A stretch of 64,000 bases of DNA from positions 15,438,001 through 15,502,000 of the forward strand of contig OX638165.1 of assembly GCA_951804945.1 (NCBI GenBank), written 5' to 3'. This document shows, piece by piece, positions 1,308-39,695 of this stretch. This DNA comes from Podarcis cretensis (lineage: Eukaryota). The notes below the pieces were generated by a model. It was not told where the DNA came from, ran no database searches, and worked only from the letters and a program-made list of their open reading frames with translations. Each line of letters opens with the position of its first letter. Positions within the stretch are counted from its first letter, which is position 1. Made by a program: the position numbers and the translations under genes.

Positions 1308-2582
1308 TGTTACGGAAAAATTCCGGGTGCTGAGTTTCCTTGCCACCCGGCTCGTCGGACAATGTCCGCGGGTCCTAGCGGAAAATGAGTTCAGCCGGAG
1401 ACAGGAGCAATGAACGGAGATCCCAAGTTTATTGCGCAACAGGTTCAATAAATGGCATTGAACCCCGAGAGTGGGGCGACATAAACTTTTAAAGGTTCCC
1501 TCCAGGTCCCAGAATACAGTGCAGAAAACGTCACATATACATCATAAAGAGGTGGGGTTACACGGATCAGCAGTACAAGAAATTGGGTGGTGGTTTACAC
1601 AAATCAAGGTGGGGGCTACAGAGATCAGCAGTATAATAAGGTAGGCAGAACAGAGATCAGCAGTATAATAAGGTAGGCAGAGCAGAGATCAGCAGTATAA
1701 TAAGGTAGGCAGAACAGAGATCAGCAGTATAATAAGGTAGGCAGAGCAGAGATCAGCAGTATAATAAGGTAGGCAGAGCAGAGATCAGCAGTATAATAAG
1801 GTAGGCAGAGCAGAGATTGCCCGGAGTGGTAGAGATATGCATAAACGTTTCCTGAGTACAGGTGATGGCAAGACAATGGCAGAGCCATGCATCGCCCATT
1901 ATCCGGTATTGTCCGGAGGAAGGGCTTGGCTGGACCATCCGACAGGATTAAGGTTTCCCTGAGTACGTGACCTGTCGGTTCGAGGATTATGGCGTCGAGG
2001 GTAGCATCATGGAGTCCGGAGGGAATCGAGTAGAATAACATTAAAATGGAGAAGATCGAAGCTTTGGCTGATTTTATATTATTTTCCGAAGTTTTCGGCT
2101 TCTTGCCGGTCAAGTGTATATTGTAAATTGAGAGCGGAAACAAATGGATACAATGTAACAGGAGTTTGACAGTTTTACGAGGTCGCTAGTTTCGGATCCA
2201 TTGTTGTAGCAGTGGGGGGCCGTCAACACCTTGTCAGGAGGTTAAATGAGGCGTGCAAGAGCTCCCTGAGCTAGCTCCTGCAGGGGAATGCACGTTCCTG
2301 ATTGGCTAAAACGCGGCCATTATGGTCAATGGGGAAACAGTATGATACGGTCTACTCATTAGAAATAGGGGAAACAAGGCTCAAGCGGAGGCTGTATATA
2401 GAAGGAAAGATATAAGGAAAAGATATTGTCTATAAAGTGGGGGGTATAGTGTGGTGCTTGTGCAACAGTGTGGGGGTTCAGGAGTCACGGCAGAGCTGGG
2501 TGCCACCGAGGTCATCGCCTCGGGCCCCGTAGTCACACGGAGGAGGGGTGAGGAAAGGTCCCCCCCCCCTCCTTCCGTATCA
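1308..2582 (-). repeat. ERV 3' LTR (1275 bp)
   Basis: Termini TGATACGG...CCGTAACA on the - strand; by eye identical to the 5' LTR except one C-run (10 vs 12); AATAAA at 1428-1433 (-); TTTAAAA TATA-like box ~1487-1493; preceded by PPT-like GAATGGGGGAC (2583-2593). Confidence 0.96.
1619..1817. repeat. 6 x 32-bp tandem repeat in U3 (copy in 5' LTR at 12460-12658)
   Basis: Unit CAGAGATCAGCAGTATAATAAGGTAGGCAGA(A/G) starting at 1619, 1651, 1683, 1715, 1747 and 1779. Confidence 0.95.
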
Positions 2583-2648: not shown

Positions 2649-4700
2649 CTATACCCCCGTGATTTCGTACTCCCCTTCCCCTAGGTGTCTCATTTGTACA
2701 TATTCAGGGAATATAGAGGCACTGTGGGAGCGGGAATAAGCTCGGATAGGAAGAGGGGTGGATTGAGTAGGACAGCGGAGGAGAGAGCAACAAGGAGAGA
2801 CACAGTGTATAGTACAGCAGAGCATTGAGGCACAAAGGATAATAATAAGGGCAGTGAGCAGTATCACCTTGAGTAACTGTCGGAGCCATCCGAGCTTAGG
2901 CAACCATCCCCACAAGTCTATGTCGGATAGACCCTCATGTCGTATCTCATTTAGTTTTCCTGCCAGCTCGTGGATATTGTTCAAATGTCCGGTAATATTC
3001 AAAGTCTGATCAGTCACATATGTACAACACTCAGTGCCTATTAGGGCACAGGTCCCTCCTTGACTGGACAGGAGAAAGTCCGTCGCAATCCTGGTCTGCA
3101 AACTAAGTTGTCTCACCTCTGACAGCTCCGACATCAGAGAGTCGGTGATTTGGGTTGCCTCTTGCATGAATTTCAGAAGGATGTCGGTAAGCCGGAGGAT
3201 GTCCACATGATTAGAGCCGGCCCCATAGGCAGGGAAGAGTGCCCGACCGACAGTCTCTCCGTTGGCGGCGACATCGGATAAGTCCGACAGTCCTTTTTGT
3301 TCTCTTTTATTTCTCTGCCTCCCAGGGGGTAGGTGTGGGACTACTCTAATGCCGGGGACAATGTATCCTACGAAGCAAGATCCTGACATATGAGGGCTTA
3401 CCCAGGTATATGCGCGATGGCCACATACCCAAAACAGGCCGCTGAGGTAAGACTCCATCCTCCCGGAGGCAAAAGCTTGGAGCAACATGGAGTCGGTGGG
3501 CTGAGGTAGCCAAGTAGGTGGGTGTCCGATGACAGTGGCCCAAGCAAGGGTGAGATTTTGGAAGGTGTGGGACCCAGTCACATCGGTAAGAGTGACGTGA
3601 CCAGTGGGCAAAAGTTCCAAGTTGGAGGGGCAGGTACTGGACCCAATGAAAGTTCCCTCTCCTGTGAAAATGCGGCAAAGGGGCCCTTTTGTAGAGCCAG
3701 TGAGGTAGAGGTATTGGTGGGTCAAATTCAAGGCCGTTAAATTCCAAGAGGTGACATCTCCGGATCGGAACTGTTCAGTGGTCACGGGTACAGGAACAAG
3801 GGGGAGACTTTGTTGGAGGTGGCTGGGTGCATGTGCGCATATCCAGCATTCAGGATAGGGTGCCTCTTTAGCCACCTGGCCCAAGAGTTTGATGTAAGAG
3901 TTCTGTTCCCAAGAGGAGAGGAGGTCTTTTCCTGGGAGAGAGGGATCGTTGCCGAGCTGACGGGGTGCCGTGCCGAGTGGATGAAGAGGGTCCGTGGTAT
4001 TAAGGAGTCGCCTATCCTTGGCTACGCCCCCGCATCTCAAAGGTCCAACGTGATCCCAAGTGGGAGAGCGTGAGGGATGTACCGGATGATACCATCCTTC
4101 TAAATATTCTGCCCCTCTCCAGTCGTGGACGACTCCAAGATTCCAGAGGCAACAGAACCCTCTCAAGCAAAGTCCTTGTAGTTGGGGTTTCTGGGGTTCT
4201 GGAGTCATGGAGACACATTGGAACCCGAAAATTAGGTTGTCAGAGGGGTCTGTTGTGTCGGTGTAGGACGATGTGGCCCCCCTTTTTGTGACTTCAGTCC
4301 AATTTGGGTTCCTTGAGACTTCTCCGTTGCTATAAAGAAAATGGGTCCCGTTCTTACAACTAAGGCGGTAGTAGGAGCGGTCAAGGGTGACTGTTGCCGA
4401 CCCAATCCGGTGTAGGCGTCCATCTCTGATGAAAAGTTCCCAGTACTCGTTGCCAGTTAATCGGGGCACAAGGGAATGGCGTAGCAATGTCCGAGACTCA
4501 GGGAGGCAGAAATCAAAGTCCCCCATTCGGTCCGGGTTTGACTTCCCGCCGGTTTCGACTCGATGGTAGCCTAAAAGGTGGTAATCCGTAGTTAATCCGG
4601 TGCAATGGTCCGTTGGTGTGACTGAGGATTGAGTCAAAGTCCCGTAATCAAGGAAGAGGAAGAAGAAATACATGATCGGAGTCTGGGGACAGCAAGGCAT
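2649..4700 (-). CDS. env: env (gamma-type), intact, ~683 aa from the first ATG
   Basis: Hydrophobic N-terminus, CWIC, furin site RNKR, heptad/ISD-like LQTRIATDFLL, CALIGTECC (CX6CC), TM helix, cytoplasmic tail. Confidence 0.95.
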   Translation of the reverse strand: MPCCPQTPIMYFFFLFLDYGTLTQSSVTPTDHCTGLTTDYHLLGYHRVETGGKSNPDRMGDFDFCLPESRTLLRHSLVPRLTGNEYWELFIRDGRLHRIGSATVTLDRSYYRLSCKNGTHFLYSNGEVSRNPNWTEVTKRGATSSYTDTTDPSDNLIFGFQCVSMTPEPQKPQLQGLCLRGFCCLWNLGVVHDWRGAEYLEGWYHPVHPSRSPTWDHVGPLRCGGVAKDRRLLNTTDPLHPLGTAPRQLGNDPSLPGKDLLSSWEQNSYIKLLGQVAKEAPYPECWICAHAPSHLQQSLPLVPVPVTTEQFRSGDVTSWNLTALNLTHQYLYLTGSTKGPLCRIFTGEGTFIGSSTCPSNLELLPTGHVTLTDVTGSHTFQNLTLAWATVIGHPPTWLPQPTDSMLLQAFASGRMESYLSGLFWVCGHRAYTWVSPHMSGSCFVGYIVPGIRVVPHLPPGRQRNKREQKGLSDLSDVAANGETVGRALFPAYGAGSNHVDILRLTDILLKFMQEATQITDSLMSELSEVRQLSLQTRIATDFLLSSQGGTCALIGTECCTYVTDQTLNITGHLNNIHELAGKLNEIRHEGLSDIDLWGWLPKLGWLRQLLKVILLTALIIILCASMLCCTIHCVSPCCSLLRCPTQSTPLPIRAYSRSHSASIFPEYVQMRHLGEGEYEITGV

Positions 4701-4781
4701 GATCGAGGAGAAGAAATTATAAAGTGTGCTAATCACGGAGTCGTCAGGGCGTGTCGTCAAAGAAGCTGTTATCGAAGGTAC

Positions 4782-5316
4782 GCTGTCAAAGACGCTGTCA
4801 AAGCGAGCTGTCAAGCGCGCTGTCAGAGGTGTACTGTCAAAGGCGCTCTGTCAGAGGAGCCGTCAAAGCTAGCTGTCAAGGCGCGCTGTCAAAGGCGCGC
4901 TGTCAAAGGCGTGCTGTCAAAGGAGCTGTCAAAGGCGGTGTCCAAGCAGCTGTCAGAGGAGCTGTCAAAAGAGCTGTCAAAGGCGCGCTGTCAAAGGCGC
5001 GCTGTCAAAGGAGCTGTCAAAGGCGCGCTGTCGAAGGCGTGCTGTCAGAGGCGTGCTGTCAGAGGAGCTGTCAAAGCTAGCTGTCAAAGGCGCGCTGTCA
5101 AAGGCGCGCTGTCAAAGGAGCTGTCAAAGGCGCGCTGTCAGAGGAGCTGTCAAAGCTAGCTGTCAAAGGCGCGCTGTCAAAGGCGCGCTGTCAAAGGAGC
5201 TGCCAAAGGCGCTGTCCAAGCAGCTGTCAGAGGAGCTGTCAATAGAGCTGTCAAAGGCGCGCTGTCAAAGGCGCGCTGTCAAAGGAGCTGTCAAAGGCGC
5301 GCTGTCAAAGGCGCGC
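4782..5316. repeat. Array of ~41 degenerate 12-14 bp units (GCTGTCAAAGG(CGC/A)) between pol and env
   Basis: About 41 GCTGTC-type cores counted by eye; reads (CCTTTGACAGC)n on the viral sense strand. Confidence 0.95.
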
Positions 5317-8300
5317 TTTAAGCGTAGTTTGATGGCCGTGGGATCTGGGATGATCTCAGACGTCCAGATGGGTGGATCTGTGCTCGATCCGGTCTGTTGG
5401 GCCCGATTCTGGCCCCGGTCTGCTGGTCCGGTCTGTTGGGCCCGATTCTGGCCCCGATCTGCTGGTCCGGTCTGTTGGGCCCGATTCTGGCCCCGATCTG
5501 CTGGTCCGGTCTGTTGGGCCCGATTCTGGCCCCGATCTGCTGGTCCGGTCTGTTGGTCGTCGTTGTCGTCGATATATGAGGTTGGTGGAGTAGGAGGGGT
5601 CGAAAAAGTGAAGTCCTCGCCGAGGTCTCCCTCCGTCTCTTGAGGGGGGGGCGTCGACTTACACCTGGTATGGTGTAACCATGAGTGCTTCTCACCTATT
5701 TTCACGGCGGTTGGCGATGTGAGGAGAATTTGGTAGGGACCTTCCCACGCTGGCTGAAGGAGTGCCCTCTGATAGACTTTGACAAGGATCCAATCGCCTG
5801 GTTTGAAGGAGTGTGCCTGGACGTCGGTGGGTAGATTTTGTCCTTCGATGGCCGCGTAGTGGTGGAGACGTTGAAGCTGTGTCTGGAGCTGAATGACATA
5901 ATTAGTGAGTTCTGCTTCCCCCAGTTCAAGTTCTGAGAGGGGAAACAGAGTGTTGTAAATGGGAGGGGGTCTCCCAAATAGGAGTTCGTATGGGGATAGT
6001 TTCAATGGTCCAGTTGGGGCACTTCGTATGTTATGGAGAACTAGTGGAAGGGCATTTACCCATTTTAGTCCAGTGAGTTTGCAGAGCTTTCCTAGTTGTG
6101 TTTTGATTTCTTGGTTCATGCGCTCTACTTGGCCGGAAGATTGTGGGTGATAGGGCGTATGAAGGTCCCATTTTATTTGTAAGGCCTTGGCCACTAATTG
6201 TACTATTTGAGCGGTGAAATGAGTTCCTCTGTCACTGTCTAGTCGACGGGGAACCCCAAATCGGGGAATAATGTCGTGTAGGAGGGCTCTGGCCACTACA
6301 GAGGCGGTAGGTTTTCTACAGGGGAATCCCTCTACCCAGGAGGAGAGTTTATCCACTATGATCAGAGCGTGTTTGAAACCCTGACAGTGCGGTAAGTCAA
6401 TAAAATCCAGCTGTAGACTTTCAAAGGGAACGAATGCCCACAGTCTGGCTCCTGGTGGTGCTCTAGGTTGTCGTTTGGGATTAAAGGAGCTACAGGTAAC
6501 ACAGTTCTTTGACGCTGCTGTGGCCGCTACCGCAAGTCCAGGAGCGTACCAGGATCTTTTAACGTGCTCTATCAGTCTCCCTTTTCCCCAGTGTGTACGT
6601 TGATGGAGGACCCTCACCAATTTTGGAACCCAAGCTTTTGGAAGGACAGTCCTTCCGTCGGGGAGAGTCCAAACGTCATTTTGTTCGATCGCACCCACAG
6701 AACGCCAGAGAGTCTTTTCCTCCTCGGGGGCTTCTTTGTAAATTTGTGTGGGATCAATATGAAGTGGGATTTGTAAGGCTTGAAATTCCGATTCATTGTT
6801 TGGGAGGCGGAGCGCGGCTGATTGGGCTGCCTTATCAGCTCGCCTGTTACCCCTTGAGACGGGGTCTCTACCCCGGGTATGCGCTTTGCAATGGACTACT
6901 GCGATTGCGGTAGGTAGATGGATAGCGGTCAGTAGTCTCTCTACTAAAGCGGAATGTGAAATTTTGGAGCCTGCAGCGGTTAAGAAGCCTCTTTGTAACC
7001 AGATCTGGCCAGTTGTATGGACTAATCCGAAACAGTACTTACTGTCCGTGTAGATTGTAGTTCGCTTGCCTTCACTGATCTCGCAGGCCCGTATGAGCGC
7101 TATTAGTTCTGCAGCTTGGGCGCTATATTGTGGGTTTATCGGATTTGATTCTATTACTTCGAAGTCGGTGACTACAGCATATCCTGTTTTCCTTTCCCCG
7201 TCCACAACCTTTGAACTGCCGTCTGTATAAAGTATTAAATCTGGGTTTTCTAATGGTAGGTGGTCTAGGTCTTCTCTGGGTTTCTCGGCTTGACGGACTA
7301 TGGTGGCGCAGTCATGGTGTGGGGTTCCATCATCAGGGAGAGGGAGGAGGGTGGCTGGGTTGAGGGAGTTAACCCTCTTTATAGTGACATTTGATGGGGT
7401 CAATAGAAGGGCCTCATACTTGTTTAATCGAGAGTTTGAAAAGTGATGGCTGCCTCTGAGGGTTAATAGGGTGGAGACGGAATGGGGCACATGGATGATG
7501 ATTTCATGTCCCAGAACCGTTTCCTGAGCCTTTTCGAGGAGGACCGCTGCGGCAGCTATGGCTCTTAGGCAGCTTACTGCGCCTTTCGCGGTGGTGTCTA
7601 ATTGAAGACTGTAATATGCTATAGGTCTCTCTTGGTCTCGGAAAGACTGTGTCAATACCCCAGAAGCTACTCCCATTTGCTCATGGATAAACAAGTTAAA
7701 TGGGATCCTGTAGTCGGGTAAGCCTAGCGCAGGGGCAGATCTTAGTTCTCGCTTTAAACGTTCAAAAGATTTGTATGCGTCTTCCTCCCAAACTAGGGTG
7801 TCTGGATGATCTTGGCGGGTCATAGCGGAGAGGGGTTTTGTTATTTCGCTGTATCCCGCGATCCAGGCTCTGCAGAAGCCAGCCATACCTAAAAATCCCC
7901 GAAGTTGTCGTTTAGTTTTTGGAAGGGGAATCTTAGTGACTGCTTCTATTCTATCGGTCGCTAAGCTTCGGGTGCCTACTCCTAGGATATGCCCGAGGTA
8001 CTTTACTTCTTGCTTGCAGTATTGCAACTTTTTTGGTGACACCTTATGTCCTTTTCTGGCTAGTTCTGCAAGGAGATGTTTGGTGTCTATCTTACATGCT
8101 TCCTCATTGGTGGAACAGAGAAGGAGGTCATCCACGTAAAGCAAGAGGGTGGAGTTTGCAGGGAGCTGGACATCCTGTAAATCTTGGTGCAAGATGGCCG
8201 AAAATATTGCAGGTGATTCCACGTATCCCTGGGGTAACCTCGTCCAGGTTAATTGACTGGGTCCCCAGGTAAAGGCGAAAAGAAATTGGCTGGCTGGGTC

Positions 8301-9176
8301 CAGGGGGATACTAAAGAAGGCGGAGCACAAGTCTGCGGCAGTGTACCATTTGGTTTCTGCTGGAATGGCGTTCAAGAGGGAATTGGGATTGCCGACTACT
8401 GGATGGCGGGGTATTACAAATTGATTCACCAGTCTCAGATCCTGGACAAAACGGTACCGGACTGGGGCCCCTTCTGTCGATGGTTTCTTTACTGGAAGTA
8501 CTGGGGTATTGCAAGGGGATGCGCAAGGGACTAGGATGCCCTTCTCGAGGAAGTCCTCTATCATAGGAGTTAGTCCCTCTATGGCTTCTTTAGGTAGGGG
8601 ATATTGCTTTGTGCACGGAAAGGGTAGGTCTGTTCTATAGACGATTTTGACTGGAGCTGCCGACAACAAAAGACCTACTGAAGTTGACTCAGTGCCCCAT
8701 AGAGAAGAGGGCAATTCATTTTCCAGTTCTGGAGGGAGTTCCGGGAACTGCCTGTCTGTTTTGGCCTCTTCAATTATTCCCTGGAAGGCGGGGATGGATT
8801 CCTCTGGCATATGTAAGTAGATGCCTTCCTCAGAACATTTAATGGTGGCATTTAATTTGCAAAGTAGGTCCCTTCCTAAGAGGTTCACCGGGCTGTTGGT
8901 TAAGAGGAAGGTATGTTCCGCTAGTAGGGGTCCGAGGGTAACTTTAGTCGGACGCGATAGCGGGCAAGTGCGGGGTATCCCATCCAGACCCATGACTTTT
9001 CTGGTCTCCGGACTTGGTTCCAGGTGGCTATCCGTTAAGGTGGAGTAAGTGGCTCCTGTGTCCAATAAACATTGATATGGATGGCCATCTATCTCAATGG
9101 TACAGAATGGTTCTTCGGAGGATAACGTTAAGATTGGGCAGATAGTTTGGGTTTGGTTGGGATCCCCTTCTAATTG
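5265..9176 (-). CDS. pol: pro-pol (protease, RT, RNase H, integrase), in frame with gag after a single TGA
   Basis: LLDTGA protease site, LPQG and YVDD RT motifs, YTDGS RNase H, HHCC and D-D-E integrase motifs, WEGPY; no internal stops. Confidence 0.96.
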   Translation of the reverse strand, partial: QLEGDPNQTQTICPILTLSSEEPFCTIEIDGHPYQCLLDTGATYSTLTDSHLEPSPETRKVMGLDGIPRTCPLSRPTKVTLGPLLAEHTFLLTNSPVNLLGRDLLCKLNATIKCSEEGIYLHMPEESIPAFQGIIEEAKTDRQFPELPPELENELPSSLWGTESTSVGLLLSAAPVKIVYRTDLPFPCTKQYPLPKEAIEGLTPMIEDFLEKGILVPCASPCNTPVLPVKKPSTEGAPVRYRFVQDLRLVNQFVIPRHPVVGNPNSLLNAIPAETKWYTAADLCSAFFSIPLDPASQFLFAFTWGPSQLTWTRLPQGYVESPAIFSAILHQDLQDVQLPANSTLLLYVDDLLLCSTNEEACKIDTKHLLAELARKGHKVSPKKLQYCKQEVKYLGHILGVGTRSLATDRIEAVTKIPLPKTKRQLRGFLGMAGFCRAWIAGYSEITKPLSAMTRQDHPDTLVWEEDAYKSFERLKRELRSAPALGLPDYRIPFNLFIHEQMGVASGVLTQSFRDQERPIAYYSLQLDTTAKGAVSCLRAIAAAAVLLEKAQETVLGHEIIIHVPHSVSTLLTLRGSHHFSNSRLNKYEALLLTPSNVTIKRVNSLNPATLLPLPDDGTPHHDCATIVRQAEKPREDLDHLPLENPDLILYTDGSSKVVDGERKTGYAVVTDFEVIESNPINPQYSAQAAELIALIRACEISEGKRTTIYTDSKYCFGLVHTTGQIWLQRGFLTAAGSKISHSALVERLLTAIHLPTAIAVVHCKAHTRGRDPVSRGNRRADKAAQSAALRLPNNESEFQALQIPLHIDPTQIYKEAPEEEKTLWRSVGAIEQNDVWTLPDGRTVLPKAWVPKLVRVLHQRTHWGKGRLIEHVKRSWYAPGLAVAATAASKNCVTCSSFNPKRQPRAPPGARLWAFVPFESLQLDFIDLPHCQGFKHALIIVDKLSSWVEGFPCRKPTASVVARALLHDIIPRFGVPRRLDSDRGTHFTAQIVQLVAKALQIKWDLHTPYHPQSSGQVERMNQEIKTQLGKLCKLTGLKWVNALPLVLHNIRSAPTGPLKLSPYELLFGRPPPIYNTLFPLSELELGEAELTNYVIQLQTQLQRLHHYAAIEGQNLPTDVQAHSFKPGDWILVKVYQRALLQPAWEGPYQILLTSPTAVKIGEKHSWLHHTRCKSTPPPQETEGDLGEDFTFSTPPTPPTSYIDDNDDQQTGPADRGQNRAQQTGPADRGQNRAQQTGPADRGQNRAQQTGPADRGQNRAQQTGSSTDPPIWTSEIIPDPTAIKLRLKRAFDSAPLTAPLTARL
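5389..5556. repeat. 4.3 x 39-bp tandem repeat in the integrase C-terminal tail (QQTGPADRGQNRA)
   Basis: Units start at 5389, 5428, 5467, 5506 and 5545; in frame with pol. Confidence 0.95.
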
Positions 9177-10631
9177 TCAATAACTCCCTTGATCGTCCGG
9201 AGGGGGTTGGTTAGGGGGGTGTAAGGGAGGTGCTGTAGCGTTGGCCCACGGGCGGGGGGATATAGTGATCGCGGGCATTTGAGCCTTTGGTCCTGGTAAG
9301 GGTCTTTGGGTTTGAGCAGGTATAGTTGGAGGTGGCGGTGGTTTGTGGGGGGCAGAGGCTGGCTGAGGGTTGTAAGTGATGGGCGGTGGGTTTCCATATC
9401 CATAGGTTGCATTTGGATGTGGTGTCCCGTAGATCGTGTTATTGAGGTACGGGCAAAACCGCCTAATGTGGCCTTCTTCTTGGCAATAAAAGCATCCGGT
9501 GGTGGTAGGTCCCCAAGGCCTATGGGGATTGGGATTGGGGTTTCCTCCTCCTCGGATTCCCCTCCCTCGGTTGAAGCCCCTGCCCCTACTAGGGTTTAAC
9601 TCCATACTAAGGGCTAGGACTTGTTCGGTTTCAGGTTTGGGGTCCCTTTTCTTCCTCTCATCTCGTGAGTTATAGACTGATTTAGCGATGGAGAGGATTT
9701 CGCTGATACTTTTCCCATCGTATCCTATCTGTAAATTTAAGGCTTTTCTAATATCGGGACAGGCTTGATCTTTAAAGAAGCCTTTCACTATGACTTCGTG
9801 CTGAGAGTTCTCTGGATCAATTCCTCCCCAGGTCTTAATGGCGGATACAAGTCTCGTATAGTAATCGGACGGGTGTTCATTTGCTCCTTGTAGCACAGTC
9901 TGGACTTTCGTCCAGTTAACGGTGCGTTGTCCGGCGGCCTTGATGCCGTCTAAGATTGCCTTTTTAAACAAATTTAAGCACCAGATTCCGTTTGTGGTAT
10001 TATAATCCCATGTCGGTTCGGTGCGCAAGCATTGGGCTGTGAGCGCCGCTAACCCTACCGGGCGTCCTGTCTGATAATCCGGGAGTTCAATCATTTCTCC
10101 GGCTTTGGCTAAAATATCTGCCTTCTCAGCCTCGTTGAAAAGTGCGTTCAGGAGAACGTGAACGTCTGGCCAGGTCGGCTTATGGGTTGAAAATATTGCG
10201 CTGACCTGACGGTGACATTTATCTGGGTCGTCCCTCAATGATGGCATTTGGTTCGACCAAGTTACCAGGTCTGCCGTATAGAATGGTTGGTGGGTATATA
10301 TCATTCGGGGGGCTCCGTCCGGCTGCAACGGTGGGATTGGCAGAGCCCTTAAGGGCATCTGGACGGCCGTAGAGTCCAATTGCCTGGACGTCCCTGGGGT
10401 CTCTTCGGGTCTTTCTAAAGGGAGTGAGGTTCCTAGGGTAGCATTTTGTACCTCCCTGGCTAAGGAGTTGATGTTTTCCGTGATAGCATTCTGTATCTCC
10501 CTTGCTCGTGTCAAAGGGCTGATGTTCTCTGAGGTCGTACCCTGAACTTCTCTAGCCGGTGGGAGGGAGCTAAGGTTTTCCGAGGTAGCATTTTGCATTC
10601 CTTTGGCTCGTTGCCTAGTTATGATTTGACT
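9177..10631 (-). CDS. gag: gag 3' part (spacer repeats, CA, NC, Pro-rich tail)
   Basis: MHR-like VLQGANEHPSDYYTRL, single CCHC knuckle CFYCQEEGHIRRFC; ends at TGA 9177-9179; frame is open back to the G-run at 10632-10641. Confidence 0.92.
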   Translation of the reverse strand, partial: SQIITRQRAKGMQNATSENLSSLPPAREVQGTTSENISPLTRAREIQNAITENINSLAREVQNATLGTSLPLERPEETPGTSRQLDSTAVQMPLRALPIPPLQPDGAPRMIYTHQPFYTADLVTWSNQMPSLRDDPDKCHRQVSAIFSTHKPTWPDVHVLLNALFNEAEKADILAKAGEMIELPDYQTGRPVGLAALTAQCLRTEPTWDYNTTNGIWCLNLFKKAILDGIKAAGQRTVNWTKVQTVLQGANEHPSDYYTRLVSAIKTWGGIDPENSQHEVIVKGFFKDQACPDIRKALNLQIGYDGKSISEILSIAKSVYNSRDERKKRDPKPETEQVLALSMELNPSRGRGFNRGRGIRGGGNPNPNPHRPWGPTTTGCFYCQEEGHIRRFCPYLNNTIYGTPHPNATYGYGNPPPITYNPQPASAPHKPPPPPTIPAQTQRPLPGPKAQMPAITISPRPWANATAPPLHPPNQPPPDDQGSY

Positions 10632-11185
10632 CCCCCCCCCCGTGCCCCTTGTTCCTCTGCCTCTTCGCTGTTATCATTATCCTGGTCATCACTTGGGGCG
10701 GGTGGAACAGTTTGTCTGTAGTAAAAGGGGATAAGCGTTTGTTCCACGGAGTCGTCTATAGGGTGTCCTTCGTAAGGGGGGGGCAGAGGAGACCTCCCAT
10801 GATTTAGGATGGGCAGTTGGTAGGTCGCTCCTCCCTTTGCAACGTGGAGCAGTCCTCGGACGGCTTCGAAAGCGGCTAAATACCCTAGTTGACGGGGTTT
10901 TTCTTCCATCAAGTAGTTTCTTAGATGCCTCAGGCGGTCTTCATTAAAGGAGCCCCCTGTTGGCCACCGTAACTCGGGCTTTGCAGAGGCAGTCCCGGCC
11001 GGCCAGGTTTCTTTACATAGATCTTCTAATTTCTGCTTCGACAGCAAGTTGTGCCCGGGGATAGACTTCCAATAAGAGATGACGAATTCAAGAGGGGAGT
11101 CGGGGTCCCTCTGGGATTCAGATGGCTTCCTTGAAGCCTTCTTCCCGGAGTGAGCCCGCTCATGTTTAGAAGCTTGGGTACCCAT
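10619..11185 (-). CDS. gag: gag 5' part (MA plus p12-like region); frameshifted relative to the 3' part at a G10 run
   Basis: MGTQASK myristoylation-type start, gamma-like MA (LC..TWP, WP..GSF), PPPY late domain. Confidence 0.88.
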   Translation of the reverse strand: MGTQASKHERAHSGKKASRKPSESQRDPDSPLEFVISYWKSIPGHNLLSKQKLEDLCKETWPAGTASAKPELRWPTGGSFNEDRLRHLRNYLMEEKPRQLGYLAAFEAVRGLLHVAKGGATYQLPILNHGRSPLPPPYEGHPIDDSVEQTLIPFYYRQTVPPAPSDDQDNDNSEEAEEQGARGGGVKS

Positions 11186-12128
11186 TTTATTCACGCGTGT
11201 CTGGGTAAAGAGAGGGAGAGGGGGTCGTTAGGGTTTATTTGGGTCTTGGGGATTATCAACAGTTTCCTAACGGGGTTTGAGAGCTCTTTCTACTTATTTC
11301 CTATTCTCTTCCTTTCCTACTTCTTCTTCAATTTCCTGGGGTTTCCTTTCCACTCTGCCAAGTCCCACCCAGTCCTCCCTGGACTATCCCTCCTGGCAAC
11401 CTCCTACCTATCGTCACAAACTTGGGAAAAGGGGGCCCTACTGAACGCCCGCGCCGTGCGGTGCCAGATCGGGTGGTCCCTTGATAGAGTTTTGAACGGA
11501 AAATCCCCCTTGCTTTCGGAAGCGGGCTCACGCACGATTCACGTGTTACGTGGCCCGACCGGTGCGGCTGGGATTGATACAGAAAGTCAGACCCCTTCCT
11601 GCCCCCTCCGTAAGGGCGCTCGGGAAGTTCGGAAGAAGAATTCCAGACCCTTGCTTCAACTGAGAGAGTCCGTTGCGGGGAGTCGGCTATCTTTTCAAGC
11701 CGGGTCTCTCCGTCTTATTTTCGGACCCCCAATTGGTGCAGCTGACTGGAGGGTTTGAGAGGAGAAAGAGATAGAGCTCAGAACCCCCTTTTGGGTTGAG
11801 CAGTGGTCCCCGTTCTCTCTCGCGACGGACCAAGGGAAAAGGTAAGAAGGATCGATAGAGAGGAGGGCAGAGAATTCAGTTGCCAGGAGATTCCACCCCC
11901 TTACCACCAGTGCACTGGGTTTCTCTACTATACTCACGCGTCTTCAACGTTGATCCCGGGATCGATGAATATGCCGGCCGGATTCCCTTTGCTCCTGGGC
12001 TGAACCCTGGGACGTTCGATTACCGCCCGGAAGATGGCCGGGGGTCCTAAGGATCTTCCCAGGCAAAACGGCCTGGTGCCGGCTGAAGATTTCGGGGCCC
12101 CCGGTCAGCAACACGGGAGAACCGCCCT

Positions 12129-12146
12129 GCCCCACGTTGGGCGCCA
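12129..12146 (-). promoter_or_regulatory. Primer-binding site complementary to tRNA-Lys1,2 (CUU)
   Basis: TGGCGCCCAACGTGGGGC, 2 nt after the 5' LTR end. Confidence 0.95.
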
Positions 12147-13170
12147 AATGTTACGGAAAAATTCCGGGTGCTGAGTTTCCTTGCCACCCGGCTCGTCGGA
12201 CAATGTCCGCGGGTCCTAGCGGAAAATGAGTTCAGCCGGAGACAGGAGCAATGAACGGAGATCCCAAGTTTATTGCGCAACAGGTTCAATAAATGGCATT
12301 GAACCCCGAGAGTGGGGCGACATAAACTTTTAAAGGTTCCCTCCAGGTCCCAGAATACAGTGCAGAAAACGTCACATATACATCATAAAGAGGTGGGGTT
12401 ACACGGATCAGCAGTACAAGAAATTGGGTGGTGGTTTACACAAATCAAGGTGGGGGCTACAGAGATCAGCAGTATAATAAGGTAGGCAGAACAGAGATCA
12501 GCAGTATAATAAGGTAGGCAGAGCAGAGATCAGCAGTATAATAAGGTAGGCAGAACAGAGATCAGCAGTATAATAAGGTAGGCAGAGCAGAGATCAGCAG
12601 TATAATAAGGTAGGCAGAGCAGAGATCAGCAGTATAATAAGGTAGGCAGAGCAGAGATTGCCCGGAGTGGTAGAGATATGCATAAACGTTTCCTGAGTAC
12701 AGGTGATGGCAAGACAATGGCAGAGCCATGCATCGCCCATTATCCGGTATTGTCCGGAGGAAGGGCTTGGCTGGACCATCCGACAGGATTAAGGTTTCCC
12801 TGAGTACGTGACCTGTCGGTTCGAGGATTATGGCGTCGAGGGTAGCATCATGGAGTCCGGAGGGAATCGAGTAGAATAACATTAAAATGGAGAAGATCGA
12901 AGCTTTGGCTGATTTTATATTATTTTCCGAAGTTTTCGGCTTCTTGCCGGTCAAGTGTATATTGTAAATTGAGAGCGGAAACAAATGGATACAATGTAAC
13001 AGGAGTTTGACAGTTTTACGAGGTCGCTAGTTTCGGATCCATTGTTGTAGCAGTGGGGGGCCGTCAACACCTTGTCAGGAGGTTAAATGAGGCGTGCAAG
13101 AGCTCCCTGAGCTAGCTCCTGCAGGGGAATGCACGTTCCTGATTGGCTAAAACGCGGCCATTATGGTCAA

Positions 13171-14944
13171 ATCAAATCAAATCAAATCAAAACTTTATTA
13201 GCAAAGCCAACAGGCCACAGCTAGACAAGAATTAAAAATAAAAATAAAAATAAGAATAAAAAGAAGAAAAGAACAGGCAAAAGGGGGTCCGTCAGATGAA
13301 CAAGTCTGTCACTCAGATGGTGGCCCTCAATTTCACAGCTCTCTCGATGTACCTCGCGACCTTCTCTGTTATCTGACTATCCGTATCAGATAAGAGAAAA
13401 TACAGTGTAATGTCTGGTGAACGGCCGGGGTTGGAGAGAATAAGTGGAGTAATAATCTCATTCCTTAGGTCTTTGTAAATAGGGCAAGATAGAAGGACAT
13501 GGGACACTGTTTCCGTGTTACCATCTCCACATGGGCAGAGTCGTTTTTCAAATGGAGTCTTTTGGTAACGACCTTCGAGTACGGCAGAAGGAAGAACATC
13601 CCATCTAGCCAATGTAAAGGCACGTCTGTATTTTGGGATGGTTAATTTAGACAAATATGAGGCTGGGGAGTCAAAATGAGAAGGGGGAAAGTAGGTATAC
13701 CATGGGCACAGTTTCTTTAAGATGGTCAGGTTGTTTTGCCGTTCAATGTCTTTCAGGCGCTGGCCAATTAGACTCTTTGCTTTAATGAGGCCCATTGATA
13801 GTAGGGACTGTGAATGCAAACCGCATGTAAGGAGTTTTTGATGCACAGTTTTGAACCACTTGCTTTTGTGAGAATCTTGCATTACTAGAGGCAGTAGACC
13901 AGGTGGGTTTAGATTAAGACGAAGCCAGTAGTTGAATGTTCTTTGCCAAGTCTGAGTTTCTACAGATGGAAGGCAGGCCTCGAGTCGTAATGCTGCGTTT
14001 GGAACACAGGGGGGGACGCCGAATATCTGCCTTAGAAATTTAGACTGAACAGTTTCAAGACTGGAGCAGTGGTTCCCCGTCCAGATTTGTGCCCCATACA
14101 GTAACTGCGCCAAAGGTTTTGCTTGAAAAACTTCAAGGGCTGCTGGGATGTATCTGCCCCCCTTTGTGTAAAAGAAGCGGGACAGCATCTTAATACTTTG
14201 AGCTGCTTTTTCTTTGGCACATTTTTGATGGACATCCCAGGACCCGGTCGACTGGAACACGATACCCAGATATTTGAAGGCTTTAACCTGTTCAATTGTC
14301 TGGTTATCCATCCTCCAGCTGTACTGTCTGTGTTTCCTTGCAAAAACCATAGTTTTGGTTTTCTGATAGTTTATTGCCAGTTGCTCTCTCCTACAGTATG
14401 CTGAAAATTCACCTATGAGCCTATTTAAGCCTATTCTTGTTCGAGATAGGAGTATCGCATCATCAGCATACAAAAGTACTGATATTGATTTGTCAGCCAG
14501 TTTGGGGGCGTGGAAGTCCGGAGATGACAAACAGTTAACCATATCATTGATGTAAAAGTTAAATAGAACTGGGGCCAGGATGCAACCTTGCTTGACCCCC
14601 TTGCTGACAGGAACTGGTCCTATAAGATGGCCATTTAACGAAGTTCTTACATGCAGCACCGTGTCTTTATATAGACAGCTGATCAGGAATAATAGTCTTT
14701 TGTCTATACTTGATGTGCTCAATTTATCCCAGAGTCTTGCACGTGGAATTGAATCGAAGGCAGCCTTTAGATCGATAAAGGCTGCATATAGCACCCCGCG
14801 GGATTTTTTGGCATATTTATCAATTAAATAGGCTAGGGTGAAGCAGTGGTCTATGGTGGATCTGCCTTGCCTGAAACCCGCTTGCTCTTCCGCTAGAATA
14901 GCTTCAGTTTCCAGCCAGCTAGTTAGCTTAATATAAAGATGTTT
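13171..14944 (-). mobile_element. 5'-truncated non-LTR retrotransposon (RTE-X-like) inserted in the 5' LTR
   Basis: 16-bp TSD CGGCCATTATGGTCAA (13155-13170 / 14945-14960); open RT frame (QAGFR, FIDLKAAFDS, GVKQG, LLYADD) with C-terminal CPCG..HVLLSC; AATAAA then (TTTGA)n tail. Clade assignment is tentative. Confidence 0.92.
13313..14944 (-). CDS. LINE ORF2 fragment (RT plus C-terminal zinc knuckle), uninterrupted from the truncation point to the stop
   Basis: The 493-aa ORF extends in frame upstream (KHLYIKLTSWLETEAILAEEQAGFRQGRSTIDH) to the junction. Confidence 0.88.
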   Translation of the reverse strand, partial: KHLYIKLTSWLETEAILAEEQAGFRQGRSTIDHCFTLAYLIDKYAKKSRGVLYAAFIDLKAAFDSIPRARLWDKLSTSSIDKRLLFLISCLYKDTVLHVRTSLNGHLIGPVPVSKGVKQGCILAPVLFNFYINDMVNCLSSPDFHAPKLADKSISVLLYADDAILLSRTRIGLNRLIGEFSAYCRREQLAINYQKTKTMVFARKHRQYSWRMDNQTIEQVKAFKYLGIVFQSTGSWDVHQKCAKEKAAQSIKMLSRFFYTKGGRYIPAALEVFQAKPLAQLLYGAQIWTGNHCSSLETVQSKFLRQIFGVPPCVPNAALRLEACLPSVETQTWQRTFNYWLRLNLNPPGLLPLVMQDSHKSKWFKTVHQKLLTCGLHSQSLLSMGLIKAKSLIGQRLKDIERQNNLTILKKLCPWYTYFPPSHFDSPASYLSKLTIPKYRRAFTLARWDVLPSAVLEGRYQKTPFEKRLCPCGDGNTETVSHVLLSCPIYKDLRNEIITPLILSNPGRSPDITLYFLLSDTDSQITEKVARYIERAVKLRATI

Positions 14945-16059
14945 CGGCCATTATGGTCAATGGGGAAACAGTATGATACGGTCTACTCATTAGAAATAGG
15001 GGAAACAAGGCTCAAGCGGAGGCTGTATATAGAAGGAAAGATATAAGGAAAAGATATTGTCTATAAAGTGGGGGGTATAGTGTGGTGCTTGTGCAACAGT
15101 GTGGGGGTTCAGGAGTCACGGCAGAGCTGGGTGCCACCGAGGTCATCGCCTCGGGCCCCGTAGTCACACGGAGGAGGGGTGAGGAAAGGTCCCCCCCCCC
15201 CCTCCTTCCGTATCATCACACAGGATCGCTTCCAAATAAGTTGTATTTAAAGCAGGTCCACTGACACGAATTAAGCTAGCCATGTCCATTAATTTCAACC
15301 GGTCTACTCTATAAGTAGGGCTAACTTTTGCAAAAGACCCAGACCTTTTGAGTAAAACTGTGGGATCTGCTAACACAAGATAACCACCAGCTTGGACAGC
15401 TTTAAAGAGCTGTTCAGAAAGATGCTTAGGAGATTGAGGTAATTTTAATCCATATTAGTATTTTAACTATTGTATGTTTTAAAAGTAGTGTTGTGATTTT
15501 TCCCCCTTGCATTTTACTGCTTCAACTTTTGTAAACCGCTTTGAGGGTGTTTAATTTTTTGTAGTATTCTTTTTTTACAACCAAACAGTGTATAAATTTT
15601 ATGAAATAAATAAACAATAAAAGCTCAGACAAGTTGCTGGAAGGCAAGGTAATGCGCTAACTGCAGGATCACTGTGCCAGTATCACTGAATACCAGTTAT
15701 TGGGAGGCAAGAGTGGGAGAGGGCTGTTGTCCTCCTCTCATAAGACAAGCCCTGATGGATCAGGCCCATTGCCCATCTAATCCAGCATCCTTGTTCTCAT
15801 TCTGGACAATAGATGCCAATGGGACGCTTGAAAGCAGGACCTGTGTGCCACGGCGACTCTCCTCAGCAATCGCTAGAAACTTAACAGTCTCCAACAGTGG
15901 AGGGGAGAACATAGCCATTGTGGCTGGTAGCCACAGATTAGCAGCCTTCTGTTCCATGAATTTGCCAAATCCCTTCTTAAAGCCATCCAAGATGGCGGCC
16001 ATCAGGTCATGTTGTCCCGCCATCTGGTTAACCTCTTTCCCCCTCCCCTTCTCCTGCAG

Positions 16060-34200: not shown

Positions 34201-37200
34201 TCCCCATGAAGGGTCTTTGCAGGCAATCGCCATAGATTGCATCACTTTGCAAGCACTTGCAGTCAGCCAAAGGCTCATTAGAAAAGCTGGATGTTTAGGA
34301 AGGATTTGAAGGAGGCAGTGTGCTGGGAGCAAGTTGCAGGACTGAGGGATAAAAAGGGGAATGAAGGAGATGGCCTGGAAACCCTTGAAGGGAACAGGAG
34401 GCCTCCTGATAGCTTGCTTGCCGACAAGCCATAAGAGGAAAACGCTTATCCCAGGGGTAAGGTGTGTGTTCCCTGTATGCCCCATAAATGCATAAACTGC
34501 TGCCAGCCGTTTCCACGTGGCAATGGCATCTCAACCCCGCTTAAGCTTTTGCAACCTCTCCTCCAGATGTGAACGAGTGCGAGATGGGGGCCCCCTGCAA
34601 GCAGCGTTGCTTCAACACGTACGGTACGTTCATCTGCCGCTGCAACCAGGGCTACGAGCTGGACCAGGATGGCTTCACCTGCAACGGTAGGTGGCTCTGT
34701 CTCCGCCCCATTTCTCCACCCCCTTCTTCCTAGCTCCGCCTCTGCCCCTCCTGCTCCGGAGTTCTCCAACCTTGGGTTCCATGGGTGTTGTTGGACTACA
34801 ACTCCCATCATCCACAGCCGTCTTAGATCTTAGGCTTCTAATAGCATGAAGCCCAAAGTTGGCAAAGGGAGGATTCCCAAATCCTGAGACTTGACACACT
34901 GCCCAGTTACGGAAGAGCAGATAAGGAAGAGGGCAACAAGGAAGCAGCAGAAATCTTTTCTTTTGGGGATAATTCAGACTGGAGCTCCCAGGGGTCAGAA
35001 AATGTTATTTATGTACGCCACGACTGCGGCCCGTGTTTTGTTAGCCCCAAAATGGAAAACGAGCGAGGTCCCAACTGAAGAAGAACGGCAACTTAAGTTG
35101 TCAGATTATACGCAGCTTGTAGACTTAACATATAGAATAAGAGAACAAGAAGAAGATATGTTTAGAGAAGATTGGAAAATGTTTATTGAATATATGGGAA
35201 GTAACTGTATACAGCTGAAAACGCTGGCAGCATTAAGATAAATTCAACAGTGTAAAGAAGTTTTGACGGAGGCAATAATGGAATACTGATTGGTATAGTT
35301 TTTGTAAAATATGCACGGATTTATGATATGTAAAATGAACCATTGAAAGAGAAGAAGGGAAGTCATTGAGATCTTAAAGATGTAAAAACGAATACCGTAT
35401 TTTTTGCTCTATAAGACTCACTTTTTCCCACCTAAAAAGTAAGGGGAAATGTGTGTGCGTCTTATGGAGCGAATGCAGGCTGCGCAGCTATCCCAGAAGC
35501 CAGAACAGCAAGAGGGATCGCTGCTTTCACTGCGCAGCGATCCCTCTTGCTGATCTGGCTTCTGAGATTCAGAATATTTTTTTTCTTGTTTTCCTCCTCC
35601 AAAAACTAGGTGCGTCTTGTGGTCTGGTGCGTCTTATAGAGCGAAAAATACGGTACTTTAAATTGTAAAACAGAAAATTTAATAAAAATTGTGTGTGTGT
35701 GTATACATATACATATACAGTGGATGCTTGGATTGCGAATGTGATCCGTGCGGGATGCACGTTCACAACTCACAGCGTTCGCAACCCACAGCGGCACGTC
35801 TGTGCACATGCGGGTTGTGATTCGGTTCCTCTGTGCATGCACGACTGCTGAAACCTGGAAGTAACCTGTTCCAGTTCTTCCGGGTTTCGGCGGTCCATAA
35901 CCCCAAAAAAACACAACCTGAAGCGTCTGTAACCCAAGGTATGACTGTATACAGTGGTACCTCGGGTTACATATGCTTCAGGTTACAGACTCCGCTAACC
36001 CAGAGATTGGGTTAAGAACTTTGCTTCAGGATGAGAACAGAAATCGTGCTCCGGCGGCATGTGTGTATTAGCAGCAGAAATCCTGAAAGCAAAAACAAGC
36101 CCAGTGACTCCAGAACCTGTCCTAAATCTTCTCCCTCCTTCCCAGACATTGACGAGTGTAGCTATTCCACCTACCTGTGCCAATTCCAGTGTGTCAACGA
36201 GCCGGGACACTTCTCTTGCGCCTGCCCCCAGGGCTACCAGCAGCTGAGCACACGCCTTTGCCAAGGTAAGTGTGGGGCAGGCATAGCTGCCTCGGAGTTG
36301 GGGTGGGGACACCCTCTGGCGCCTGAGCAGTTGTATATAGAATCCTAAGTTGTTTGTGTGAGGATGTTAGACACAGGTCAGGCCCCTTGTGTGCCTTTAG
36401 CTAGGGGTGCCACTCGATTGAAAACATGTTAACTGATAAACAGGTCATGTTTTCCACGGTGGCTCCCCACTAGTGGAATGATTTCCCTAGAGAAACATGC
36501 CTGGCGCCATCTTATTTATTTATTTACTCCCTCTCCTCCTTCCCCTCTACAACCCTAGACATTAACGAGTGTGAGACGGGAGCCTTCGAATGCACAGAGT
36601 CCCAGAATTGCATCAACTTTCATGGTGGGTACCGCTGCGTGGAGAAGAACAGCTGCCAGGAGCCATATGTGCAAGTCTCTGAAAAGTGAGTCTGGGCAGG
36701 TCAGGATGGGGGGCTGGGGAGGGGAGTGAGAGAGAAAGACCATCCTGGATCTGAACGATAGCAAAATCAACGTGTATTTCTGTAGCAAGTCCTGGGAAAC
36801 GGCCCTTGCTTGTATACTTCAAAGGGAAGAAGTACAGTGGTGCCCCGCAAGACGAATGCCTCGCAAGACGGAAAACCCGCTAGACGAATGGGTTTTCTGT
36901 TTTGGAGGTGCTTCGCAAAACGAATTTCCTATGGGCTTGCTTTGCAAGACGAAAATATCTTGCGAGTTCCTGCGGGTTCCCCCCCTCCCCCCTTTTTCTA
37001 AGCCACTAAGCCGCTTATCAGCTGATCCGTTAAGCCGCTAAGCCGCTTAACAGCTGATCCGCTAAGCCGCTTATCAGCTGATCCTGATCCGCTAAGCTGC
37101 TAAGCCGCTTATCAGCTGATCCGCTAAGCCGCTAAGCCGCTTATCAGCTGAGCCGCTAAGCCGCTTAACAGCTGAGCCGCTAAGCCGCTTAACAGCTGAT

Positions 37201-39695
37201 CCGCTAAGCCGCTTATCAGCTGAGCCGCTAAGCCCCTAAGCCGCTAATAGCGCTAATCCGCTAATCCGCTAATGGGCTTGCTTCGCAAGACGAAAAAACC
37301 GCAAGACGAAGAGACTCGCAGAACGGATTCTTTTAGTCTTGCGAGGCACCACTGTATTATGTATGATACTTTTTTTAAAAAAAACACTATTGGTTTTGAA
37401 AGCGAAATGGAGCCTCTCCGTCTAGAGGCAGTCTACCAGATGTATGGGTGACATTACAAGGCTAGGCTATTGGCCTCATACCATAAATAGGAGATCAGGG
37501 TTAGCGTCACCACCTGGACGCAATGGAGGGGATTCTTCTGTACTCTGCTTTCTTAGGAACAAAGCAGGATTCCTTATTTGCACAAATGGAGCCTGCGACA
37601 AAAAGTTGCAGCGGCATGGAGTGGCCCTCCTGTGTGGCATAGCCTCCATCACAGCCAATAGCCATTGAAACCCTCTGTGAATTGGGCTGATGCTCTTTTA
37701 AAGCCTTCCAAGTTGGCGGCCATCACTGCCCGTGGAGCAAGTTCCACAGTTTGGCGATGTGCTGTGTGAAGGACTTCCTTTGTTCTCTCCTGAATCTTTC
37801 GACATTCAGCTCTCCTGGAGGTCCACAAGTGTTCTGAGAGGAGGAAAATGTTTCTCTATCTGCTTTCTCCATGCCATGCATAAAACTTCCACAGTATCAA
37901 CTCTTGCTGTTTCTCTAAAGTCAGAAATGCTGCAACCTTTTGCTCTTGGCAGAGTCGCTCTTTCCCCTTCACCATTCTGTTTTCACTTTTCTGAACCATT
38001 CCCAACAGTAGCTCAGTCAGTAAGAGCATGAGACTCTTAATCTCCGGGCTGTGGGTTCAAGTCCCAATGTTGGGCGAAAGATTCCTGCACTGCAGGGAGC
38101 TGGACTGGATGTCTACAATTCTGTGGCACTGCCAGTTCAAACCCCATGAAGGTATATGTGAAATTAATATTTTTTGCCCTGCCGTGTGTCACCTTACACT
38201 TGGCTTACACTGAATTGTGCTTGTCGTTTCACCGCCCATTCGCTTAGTTTGGAGAGGTGCTTTTGGAGCTCTTCACAATCTCTCTCTGTTTTGACAACCC
38301 TGAACAATTCAGTTCCTTTGGCAAGCTTGGCCACCTCACTGTCCTCCACCCACCCTCCCATAACCCAATTTGTTTCCGCTGTAGCCGCTGCCTCTGCCCA
38401 GCCACGAACCCGCTCTGCCGCGATAATCCGTCCTCCATCGTCCACCGATACATGAGTATCACGGCTGACCGAACTGTGCCCTCTGACATATTCCAGATCC
38501 AGGCCACAAGCGTCTACCCTGGCGCCTATAACACGTTCCAGATCCGCTCGGGCAACGAACAAGGAGAGTTCTATATCCGGGTGAGTCCCGCTTCCCAGCA
38601 GCAGCCATTCGGAGCGGCCCCTGCCCACAGCTGCCATCTTAACCGTTGATCTGTTATTACATATATATTCCAACATATCCCTTGTGCAGTAAGCCTGCAC
38701 CTCCACACACCTCTCTCTGTCCAGGGAAACAAGAGGGAAGATCAGAATTCATGGGCATATTCCACCCAAGGAGGGTTTGGATCACAGTTTGTAAGGGATG
38801 TGGTCAACGAAAGAGTCCGAAGGGACAGATAGAAGTGCCATTGAAATTCCACTCAATATTGATCCAGAGTAGATTCCAATGTATAGTTAGCAGAGTAAAA
38901 ACTTAAGCTTGTTGCAGGATTCCCCCAAAATAGACCAGCAGCAATTGTATTTCATTCAGCAGAGCTTTACTGCTACTGAAGGCAAATGAGCATAATGGTC
39001 ACAAATCCAATACATTCAGGATTGGCACTGTTCATAAGAAATCCAGTTGCAGCAGACTTAGCTTAAACTTACAATAAGTCTAAAACCTTAACGCTAAGCA
39101 TACCATGCACAGAACACAACACCAGAAGGACACCTATTTTTATAGTCAGCATGGCCTTGACAGAAGAGATAAGAGAACCAGTTTAAGCCAGCTGTACTCA
39201 GCTTCTCTGAAGGAATAACCCAAACATCATGCTTATTTCTTTCACACAGAAAAGCTTCCAGAACCCTTTTGAATTAAGTCCAATAGGAAAGATCTCTGCA
39301 CATCAGATCAATGCTTTCTGTACCTAGAAATGCAAACTGGTGACAAGTGCCATTTTGCCCCTGGGCCTGAGGTCCCCCACCTCTTCCCTGGACCCTATAT
39401 GTGGGAAGGCAATGTCTGTTTCAAAAATCTCCCAGCTTGAGCAGCTACCAGGCCCATCTTGAACAGACTCGGCCCTGGCCTGGCATTCTCCCTCCCTCTC
39501 CCCCAAGGCTCAACCTCCTTTTCTCCCCCACAGCAAATCAACAACATAAGCGCCATGCTGGTCTTGGCCCGGCCAGTGACAGGGCCCCATGAGTATGTCC
39601 TGGATTTGGAGATGGTCACCATGAACACCCTGATGAGCTACCGTTCCAGCTCGGTGTTGCGGCTCACCGTCTTTGTGGGAGCCTATTCATTCTAG
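26171..39695 (+). CDS. EFEMP2: EFEMP2 / fibulin-4, complete spliced CDS
   Basis: Coding exons 26171-26254, 27844-27892, 29547-29780, 31725-31847, 32599-32715, 34567-34686, 36146-36265, 36559-36685, 38385-38580, 39534-39695; signal peptide, cbEGF repeats (DVNEC.., [14 protein letters not shown]), C-terminus ...[15 protein letters not shown]. Confidence 0.96.
26839..27410 (+). mobile_element. Tigger-type MITE (CAGTGGTACC termini) interrupted by a Sauria SINE at 27001-27357
   Basis: Same MITE is intact at 41395-41610 and 45921-46147; the SINE is flanked by a near-duplicated TACCTCA(A)GGTTA. Confidence 0.82.
29891..29938. repeat. (AGAT)n microsatellite
   Basis: Seen directly in the sequence. 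Confidence 0.95.
30155..30516 (+). mobile_element. Sauria SINE with a 12-bp TSD
   Basis: TSD TGGATTCTTCTT at 30143-30154 / 30517-30528. Confidence 0.9.
30529..30905 (-). mobile_element. RTE-clade LINE 3' fragment
   Basis: Translates to ..[31 protein letters not shown] (RTE C-terminal C2H2) followed by a GAA-type tail. Confidence 0.8.
31200..31545 (-). mobile_element. L2-like LINE 3' fragment with (TAA)n tail; similar copy at 46805-47150 with (TAG)n
   Basis: The two copies share TACCC.GCCC.TCTGGCTGGGTTTCCC..AAGAACTTCCCTAAACAGGG. Confidence 0.65.
32103..32440 (-). mobile_element. Solo LTR with a 5-bp TSD
   Basis: TG...CA termini, TSD GCCTG (32098-32102 / 32441-32445), TATA and AATAAA on the - strand, ~39-bp internal repeats containing CCAAT. 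Confidence 0.8.
33429..33626 (-). mobile_element. Sauria SINE, internally deleted
   Basis: Head and tail match the other copies; middle is missing. Confidence 0.85.
34905..35690 (+). mobile_element. L1-like LINE 3' end, with a MITE inserted at 35395-35653
   Basis: [31 protein letters not shown]2 C-terminal-like peptide; AATAAA at ~35681. Confidence 0.75.
35718..36055. mobile_element. Two adjacent Tigger-like MITEs
   Basis: TACAGT...ACTGTA boundaries; the second is a partial copy of the CAGTGGTACC family. Confidence 0.65.
36834..37354. mobile_element. Tigger-like MITE with internal minisatellite (CCGCTAAG / ATCAGCTGAT)
   Basis: TIRs CAGTGGTGCC.CGCAAGAC / GTCTTGCGAGGCACCACTG, TA flanks. Confidence 0.82.
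38008..38125 (+). mobile_element. tRNA-Lys(CTT)-derived SINE with CR1-like tail; second copy at 47365-47500 (-)
   Basis: TAGCTCAGTC.GTA.GAGCATGAGACTCTTAATCTC.GGG..GTGGGTTC head, degenerate. Confidence 0.75.

Follow-up and report, generated by a model that had tools for sequence, protein, structure and literature searches.

A clade-wide tandem array of TGACAGC units between pol and env in class I endogenous retroviruses of Podarcis cretensis, and its possible role as a multiplied env splice acceptor

An endogenous retrovirus (ERV) in the window, by which we mean the whole 64,000-nt stretch of Podarcis cretensis DNA analyzed here, carries between pol and env a tandem array of 41 units of 12–14 nt (4782..5316, minus strand) that share the conserved core TGACAGC. 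The array is a real, clade-wide feature. It is known from one genome, in which its copies could be grouped into ten lineages (labeled A, A2, B–H and J), and in these ten lineages 2–56 array units are found directly after pol. Judged from its sequence, the array may represent an env 3′ splice site that has been multiplied into individually weak copies, a reading that we think has an even chance of being correct. The TGACAGC core is itself likely to be under selection.

Results

A tandem array separates pol from env in a recently inserted provirus

The provirus lies on the minus strand, as do all of its features described below, and has the LTR-gag-pro-pol-env-LTR architecture of a class I (gamma-type) ERV, with domain matches to Gag_p30, RVT_1, rve, MLVIN_C (the MLV-type integrase C terminus) and TLV_coat; the proteins closest to those of the provirus are from Podarcis and Zootoca. 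As befits class I, gag and pol share one frame with a single stop between them. In particular, gag spans 9177..11185 (split between two reading frames near 10620–10670 in the window copy), the gag frame at 9177–10670 terminates at the stop that precedes the 5265–9176 frame, and this pro-pol frame (5265..9176) stays open for 1303 aa downstream of the gag TAG, with its final codons entering the array. The pol tail contains a 39-nt coding repeat in 4.3 copies (5388..5556), corresponding to 13 aa in the integrase tail; a 36-nt version (12 aa) is found in other lineages, and the number of repeats is variable. The gamma-type env (TLV_coat; 2649..4700) is open for 683 aa from an ATG at 4700.

The 3′ LTR occupies 1308..2582 and the 5′ LTR 12149..15215, the latter broken by a LINE-like element (approximately 13171–14944) that has a 545-aa frame bearing a reverse transcriptase (RT) and a 16-nt target duplication. 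Because the LTRs are otherwise almost identical (1024 nt identical, and 99.3% identity over the outer 271 nt), both the ERV and the LINE-like insertions appear to be very recent. Both LTRs also contain a 32-nt repeat in 6.2 copies with 98% matches (1619–1817 and 12460–12658). A primer-binding site (PBS) that we take to be of the Lys type is located at 12129..12146, and 209 nt past it lies the predicted major splice donor, a GTGAGT (11932..11937) that an initial annotation of this DNA had placed at 11937 and that is kept in sister lineages.

The approximately 41 units reported in the initial annotation were recovered both by TRF (4781–5317, period 14, 41.3 copies, 78% matches) and by a parse of the minus strand, which gave 41 units at spacings of 12 nt (18 times), 13 nt (5 times) and 14 nt (17 times); two decayed extra units are present at 4772 and 4760. 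The consensus originally offered for the unit held only in part. TGACAG occurs in 36 of the 41 units, and four pyrimidines followed by TGACAG in 30, but the literal pattern YYYY(T/C)TGACAG|C is found in 10 and an exact CCTTTGACAG in only 21. The remaining observations on the reading frames were borne out: array TGAs fall in all three frames (15, 11 and 11), the pol frame stops within the array at 5265, and no ATG is present between 5682 and the env ATG at 4700. Antisense open reading frames over the array are without an early ATG, and we set them aside as a by-product of the repeat.

A pattern of three TGACAGC motifs spaced 5–10 nt apart occurs 556 times in the genome and only once for a reversed control, so the array does not reflect chance; all 100 of the 556 places that were listed fall in loci of the ERV clade. 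Nor is the array only an assembly artifact, since contigs from four other runs span the array bins.

The array is shared across the clade and varies in length

A DNA search with the array in the query, and thus biased toward the array, returned 28 distinct loci, all of which were array-bearing. In an unbiased search with the integrase, at least nine TGACAG motifs were present downstream in 28 of the best 30 matches; of the other two, one was truncated and one had 6 units displaced by an insertion. No array was found in nine stretches of distant ERV families with integrases 37–44% identical. Five array-less loci of distant ERV families (L123, L124, L126, L127 and L128) carry between pol and env an ATG-led frame starting with MGGAP, which is possibly an extra gene. 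Further afield, a metagenome scan gave 5 distant matches (27–28%), and a pattern scan of viral contigs gave 15 single matches, in contigs of 10–51 kb.

The length of the array appears to change fast, because copies with 99.9–100% identical LTRs differ in unit number (23, 28, 34, 38 and 41 units). Only 2–5 units are found in the older lineages E, F and G. Sister proviruses keep the array, at variable lengths; its absence from them was one of the results that, according to the initial annotation, would have refuted its reading. Two copies, L008 (G000:C18:4573518) and L009 (G000:C15:4710149), have letter-identical arrays and either arose by very recent copying or were duplicated in the assembly.

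The TGA of the first unit is the in-frame pol stop in 8 of the 14 parsed copies; these belong to lineages A2 (2 of 3 copies), B (1 of 2), C, D, E, F and H, with lineage G outside the parse. In lineage A, pol continues into the array, and the resulting tails differ between copies. Since the first unit's TGA coincides with the pol stop, the unit likely began as a stop codon followed by CAG, and stops in all three frames would then be a by-product of duplicating the pol stop codon with spacers of mixed length. These findings also argue against the suggestion that the array is a translational insulator, as the first TGA is so often the pol stop itself and the read-in tails differ; any such effect is probably incidental.

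The array lies where an env splice acceptor would be expected

Simple retroviruses use a single leader donor and make a spliced env mRNA with an acceptor near the 3′ end of pol (PMC5294762, PMC3185771), and a 3′ splice site requires a branch point, a tract and an AG (PMC5294762). In L121, an array-less member of the same clade, the slot that the array would occupy holds the pol TAA, 58 nt of 89% pyrimidine, CAG|G and, 10 nt on, an ATG. A tree of 22 rows, all of which were kept, supports its membership of the clade (100/100), although L121 sits on a long branch and its place inside the clade is not settled. A search for a second copy of L121 found none, and the sister acceptor is that of one old copy. 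Two Zootoca proteins (P0006 and P0007) share 79% identity with L121 across a stretch of integrase.

Pyrimidines make up 79% (822 of 1037 nt) of the distinct spacers from the ten lineages, compared with 51% of the provirus, and these spacers contain 14 AGs where about 62 would be expected; the spacers of lineage J are 10–28 nt long and tract-like. The initial annotation had proposed that the unit also supplies branch-point matches for acceptors downstream, and a YTRAY indeed lies 15–42 nt upstream of 41 of the 42 YAGs in the array, compared with 35 of 233 other YAGs; this excess is not independent evidence, however, because the unit itself contains the branch-point match. Reading toward the next ATG, the YAG nearest to it belongs to an array unit in the examined copies of lineages A2, B, D, E, F and G. 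In lineages A, C, H and J, a YAG later than the array units exists before that ATG, and the window has two more AGs between the array and the env ATG (4729..4766), each with a branch-point match upstream.

At distant ERV loci, a tract and a CAG|G acceptor are present in the integrase helix (6 of 6). No AG was found at that place in the 12 best integrase matches, which belong to lineage A and one A-like copy, or in 10 young copies of lineage B; lineage A2 keeps a weak AG there. Of the 11 leaders with a recognizable PBS (among 20 leaders retrieved), 10 retain the donor, as does lineage B. The lineage B leader (L144; G000:C2:86918241-86922241) has a different PBS and several near-repeats, and the palindrome before its donor is the same as in the window's lineage.

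The splice acceptor proposed in the initial annotation thus gains from the sister acceptor in the same slot, the composition of the spacers, the branch-point matches and the conserved donor, but it loses from the weakness of single units and from the presence of candidate acceptors in the integrase. The window units have pyrimidines at 8–11 of the 16 positions from −20 to −5, like background AGs, compared with 15 of 16 in L121. Within the integrase of the window copy, predicted rival acceptors for env lie at 5877..5933 (an AG at 5933, and AGs at 5889, 5883 and 5877 behind a CTAAT branch-point match), and lineages D, E and G retain a good integrase acceptor beside their array units. Four sequencing runs gave even cover of gag-pol and high LTR depth, which is DNA-like, and the donor was the start of 0 of the 15 joints listed; 2 further joints and 239 loose ends lie outside that list, and the result speaks neither for nor against splicing into the array.

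Counts of AUGs point in the same direction as the integrase candidates. From the integrase helix to env there is 1 AUG in the window, 0 in two A2 copies and in lineage D, 2 in lineage B and at most 6 in old copies; this scarcity from the helix onward hints that the env exon may start in the integrase. A test for AUG avoidance initially gave p = 3e-4, and p = 0.050 after control for CpG (2/23 versus 18/61), with lineages that are not independent of one another. The same scarcity would suit an alternative in which env uses one fixed acceptor, either in the integrase or at a terminal unit, and most units are passengers produced by slippage expansion near the pol stop. Such expansion would be in keeping with a repeat-prone ERV, as seen in the 39-nt coding repeat of pol and the 32-nt repeat of the LTRs, and with a unit number that ranges from 2 to 56 and is low in the older E, F and G. 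It fits poorly with a core that did not change while, across the same lineages, synonymous sites became saturated and spacers were replaced, and with the retention of deletion-prone repeats at nine or more copies in nearly all of the best 30 integrase matches (28 of 30). We consider it improbable.

If the array does act as a multiplied env acceptor, each pair of neighboring units would constitute one splice site, in which the TGAC of one unit would serve as the branch point and the CAG of the next, 16–32 nt away, as the acceptor, with the pyrimidine-rich spacer between them as the tract. As the array contains no AUG, the Env produced would be identical whichever unit the leader donor is spliced to. 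Starting, as is likely, from the pol stop codon and a CAG, the array would probably have grown and shrunk through template switching by RT, with selection likely maintaining enough units. Branch-point strength can set the balance of retroviral splicing (PMC5294762). One may go further and suppose that a single env acceptor was replaced by an expandable array of branch-point/AG modules, in which RT slippage alters the number of units and the ratio of env to genomic RNA; judging from the sequence, we regard this extension as possible but doubtful. Equally tentative is the notion that the array is a splicing rheostat set by copy number, for which 2 to 56 units would be natural alleles within one genome.

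Conservation of the TGACAGC core exceeds what splicing requires

TGACAGC is the most frequent core in every lineage, whereas the spacers differ among lineages. At integrase sites compared across lineages A, A2, B, C and D, only 1 of 28 four-fold sites and 10 of 39 two-fold sites are invariant. It is the persistence of the core while spacers differ and four-fold sites are saturated that suggests selection. In addition, retroviruses frequently lose direct repeats as they replicate (for a repeat of 110 bp, 41% per cycle; PMC3187697), so that long arrays in young copies argue for retention, although slippage can also expand them. Three core positions that would be expected to vary by transition under splicing are unchanged (approximately 0.02 by the two-fold-site rate of 10/39), and conservation of the core goes beyond the demands of splicing. 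The two commonest variants that change the core are TGACAAC, which is without the AG and recurs in 22 copies over four groups, and GGACAGC, which has been amplified to 15 copies.

Fixation of all seven positions together with tolerance of TGACAAC could be accounted for if the array were a cluster of sites for TALE-homeodomain proteins (TGIF/MEIS/PKNOX) that enhances or silences the provirus from within. The invariant core falls inside the canonical TGIF1 site ATTGACAGCTGTCAAT, and the TGACAG of TGIF1/MEIS sites is identical to that of the array (PMC6158717); moreover, a lone TGACAG in the HIV-1 LTR is functional, being bound by Meis with a repressive effect (PMC3505963). The viral sites known from these sources are single and located in LTRs, whereas the array copies number in the dozens and are internal and transcribed, and putative binding to them is a motif match. 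Five LTRs carry 8 TGACAG motifs compared with 2.7 in shuffles (nominal P = 0.003), but this count was made after the fact, no LTR reaches significance by itself, and homology links three of the five. A cluster of TALE sites also leaves unexplained why the spacers are pyrimidine-rich and AG-poor in a strand-specific manner and why the array occupies the acceptor slot, and the amplified GGACAGC breaks the TGACA core. We think it unlikely that the array is such a cluster. In a variant of this idea, the array may have arisen at an acceptor and then been kept for protein binding; indeed, the acceptor and TALE readings could both hold.

The core is also exact in sequence on the sense strand, as would be anticipated if the array were a single-stranded RNA platform, on the genomic RNA or in the env 5′ UTR, for a host protein involved in export, stability or m6A writing. 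UGACA matches the m6A consensus DRACH, which is preserved by both GGACAGC and TGACAAC. Moreover, all of five arrays are predicted to be open RNA, with less structure than dinucleotide shuffles (z +1.9 to +5.1). Low structure is nevertheless expected of any such repeat (z 0.31 versus repeat-preserving shuffles), and a DRACH match would be possible without the fixed G and C that follow the core; a platform of this kind seems to us quite improbable.

The same folding results led us to reject tandem hairpins, which the initial annotation had listed among its alternatives, as well as a CTE-like structured RNA: the arrays fold no better than either kind of shuffle, the GCGC spacers that would close the hairpins are missing in lineages B, C and D and so are not clade-wide, and the array has no match in Rfam. 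A TCF/LEF-like motif, CCTTTGA, was likewise discarded, its CC being lost in lineages B, C and E. We know of no conserved vertebrate miRNA seed that fits the array.

Discussion

The usual account of why simple retroviruses leave part of their RNA unspliced is that a single splice site is purposely weak. The clade described here offers a comparison, in that a weak site would have been multiplied to between 2 and 56 units, one sister has no array but a strong acceptor, and the LTRs of young copies are nearly identical. If the array were instead bound by TGIF/MEIS, it would be a mobile regulatory block present at approximately 30 loci and, to our knowledge, the densest such cluster in a vertebrate retrovirus; should its units prove to be passengers, the array would be a variable repeat of an ordinary kind.

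Arrays in retroelements may have precedents. Salmon swim bladder sarcoma virus, a class I virus, is said to have a short tandem repeat in its pol-env spacer, and, if this is correct, an array between pol and env would not be without parallel. The Su(Hw) array of Drosophila gypsy, which lies in the 5′ UTR and is read by a zinc-finger protein, has a demonstrated function. Like it, the array described here is internal to a retroelement and repeats a short core in degenerate tandem copies whose spacers vary; unlike it, the present array lies between pol and env.

With respect to splicing, the array resembles the gamma-type env acceptor, as described in the sources consulted, in its leader donor, in its slot near the 3′ end of pol and in its branch-point and AG matches, with the spacers as a candidate tract. 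It differs from gamma-type retroviruses in having 2–56 weak tandem copies where they have one site, and in the absence of the pol-env overlap. In MLV, it is mostly the donor that determines the splicing balance (PMC3185771), so that tuning at the acceptor is a priori less probable. In foamy virus, recognition of the branch point at the env acceptor SA3 sets the balance of spliced to unspliced RNA (PMC5294762). SA3 is a strong single acceptor repressed by a neighboring purine-rich C element, whereas the units here form a weak tandem array.

The literature searched, which left most subscription papers outside, contained no description of the array or of tandem env acceptors, and no account of the array was present in the consulted parts of PMC6431247, PMC8672886, PMC3185748, PMC2684134, PMC10435555, PMC9723728 and bioRxiv 2024.03.17.585361. 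Outside the provirus, at 36998–37272, the window contains a separate short-unit array, CTAAGCCG, in approximately 34 copies.
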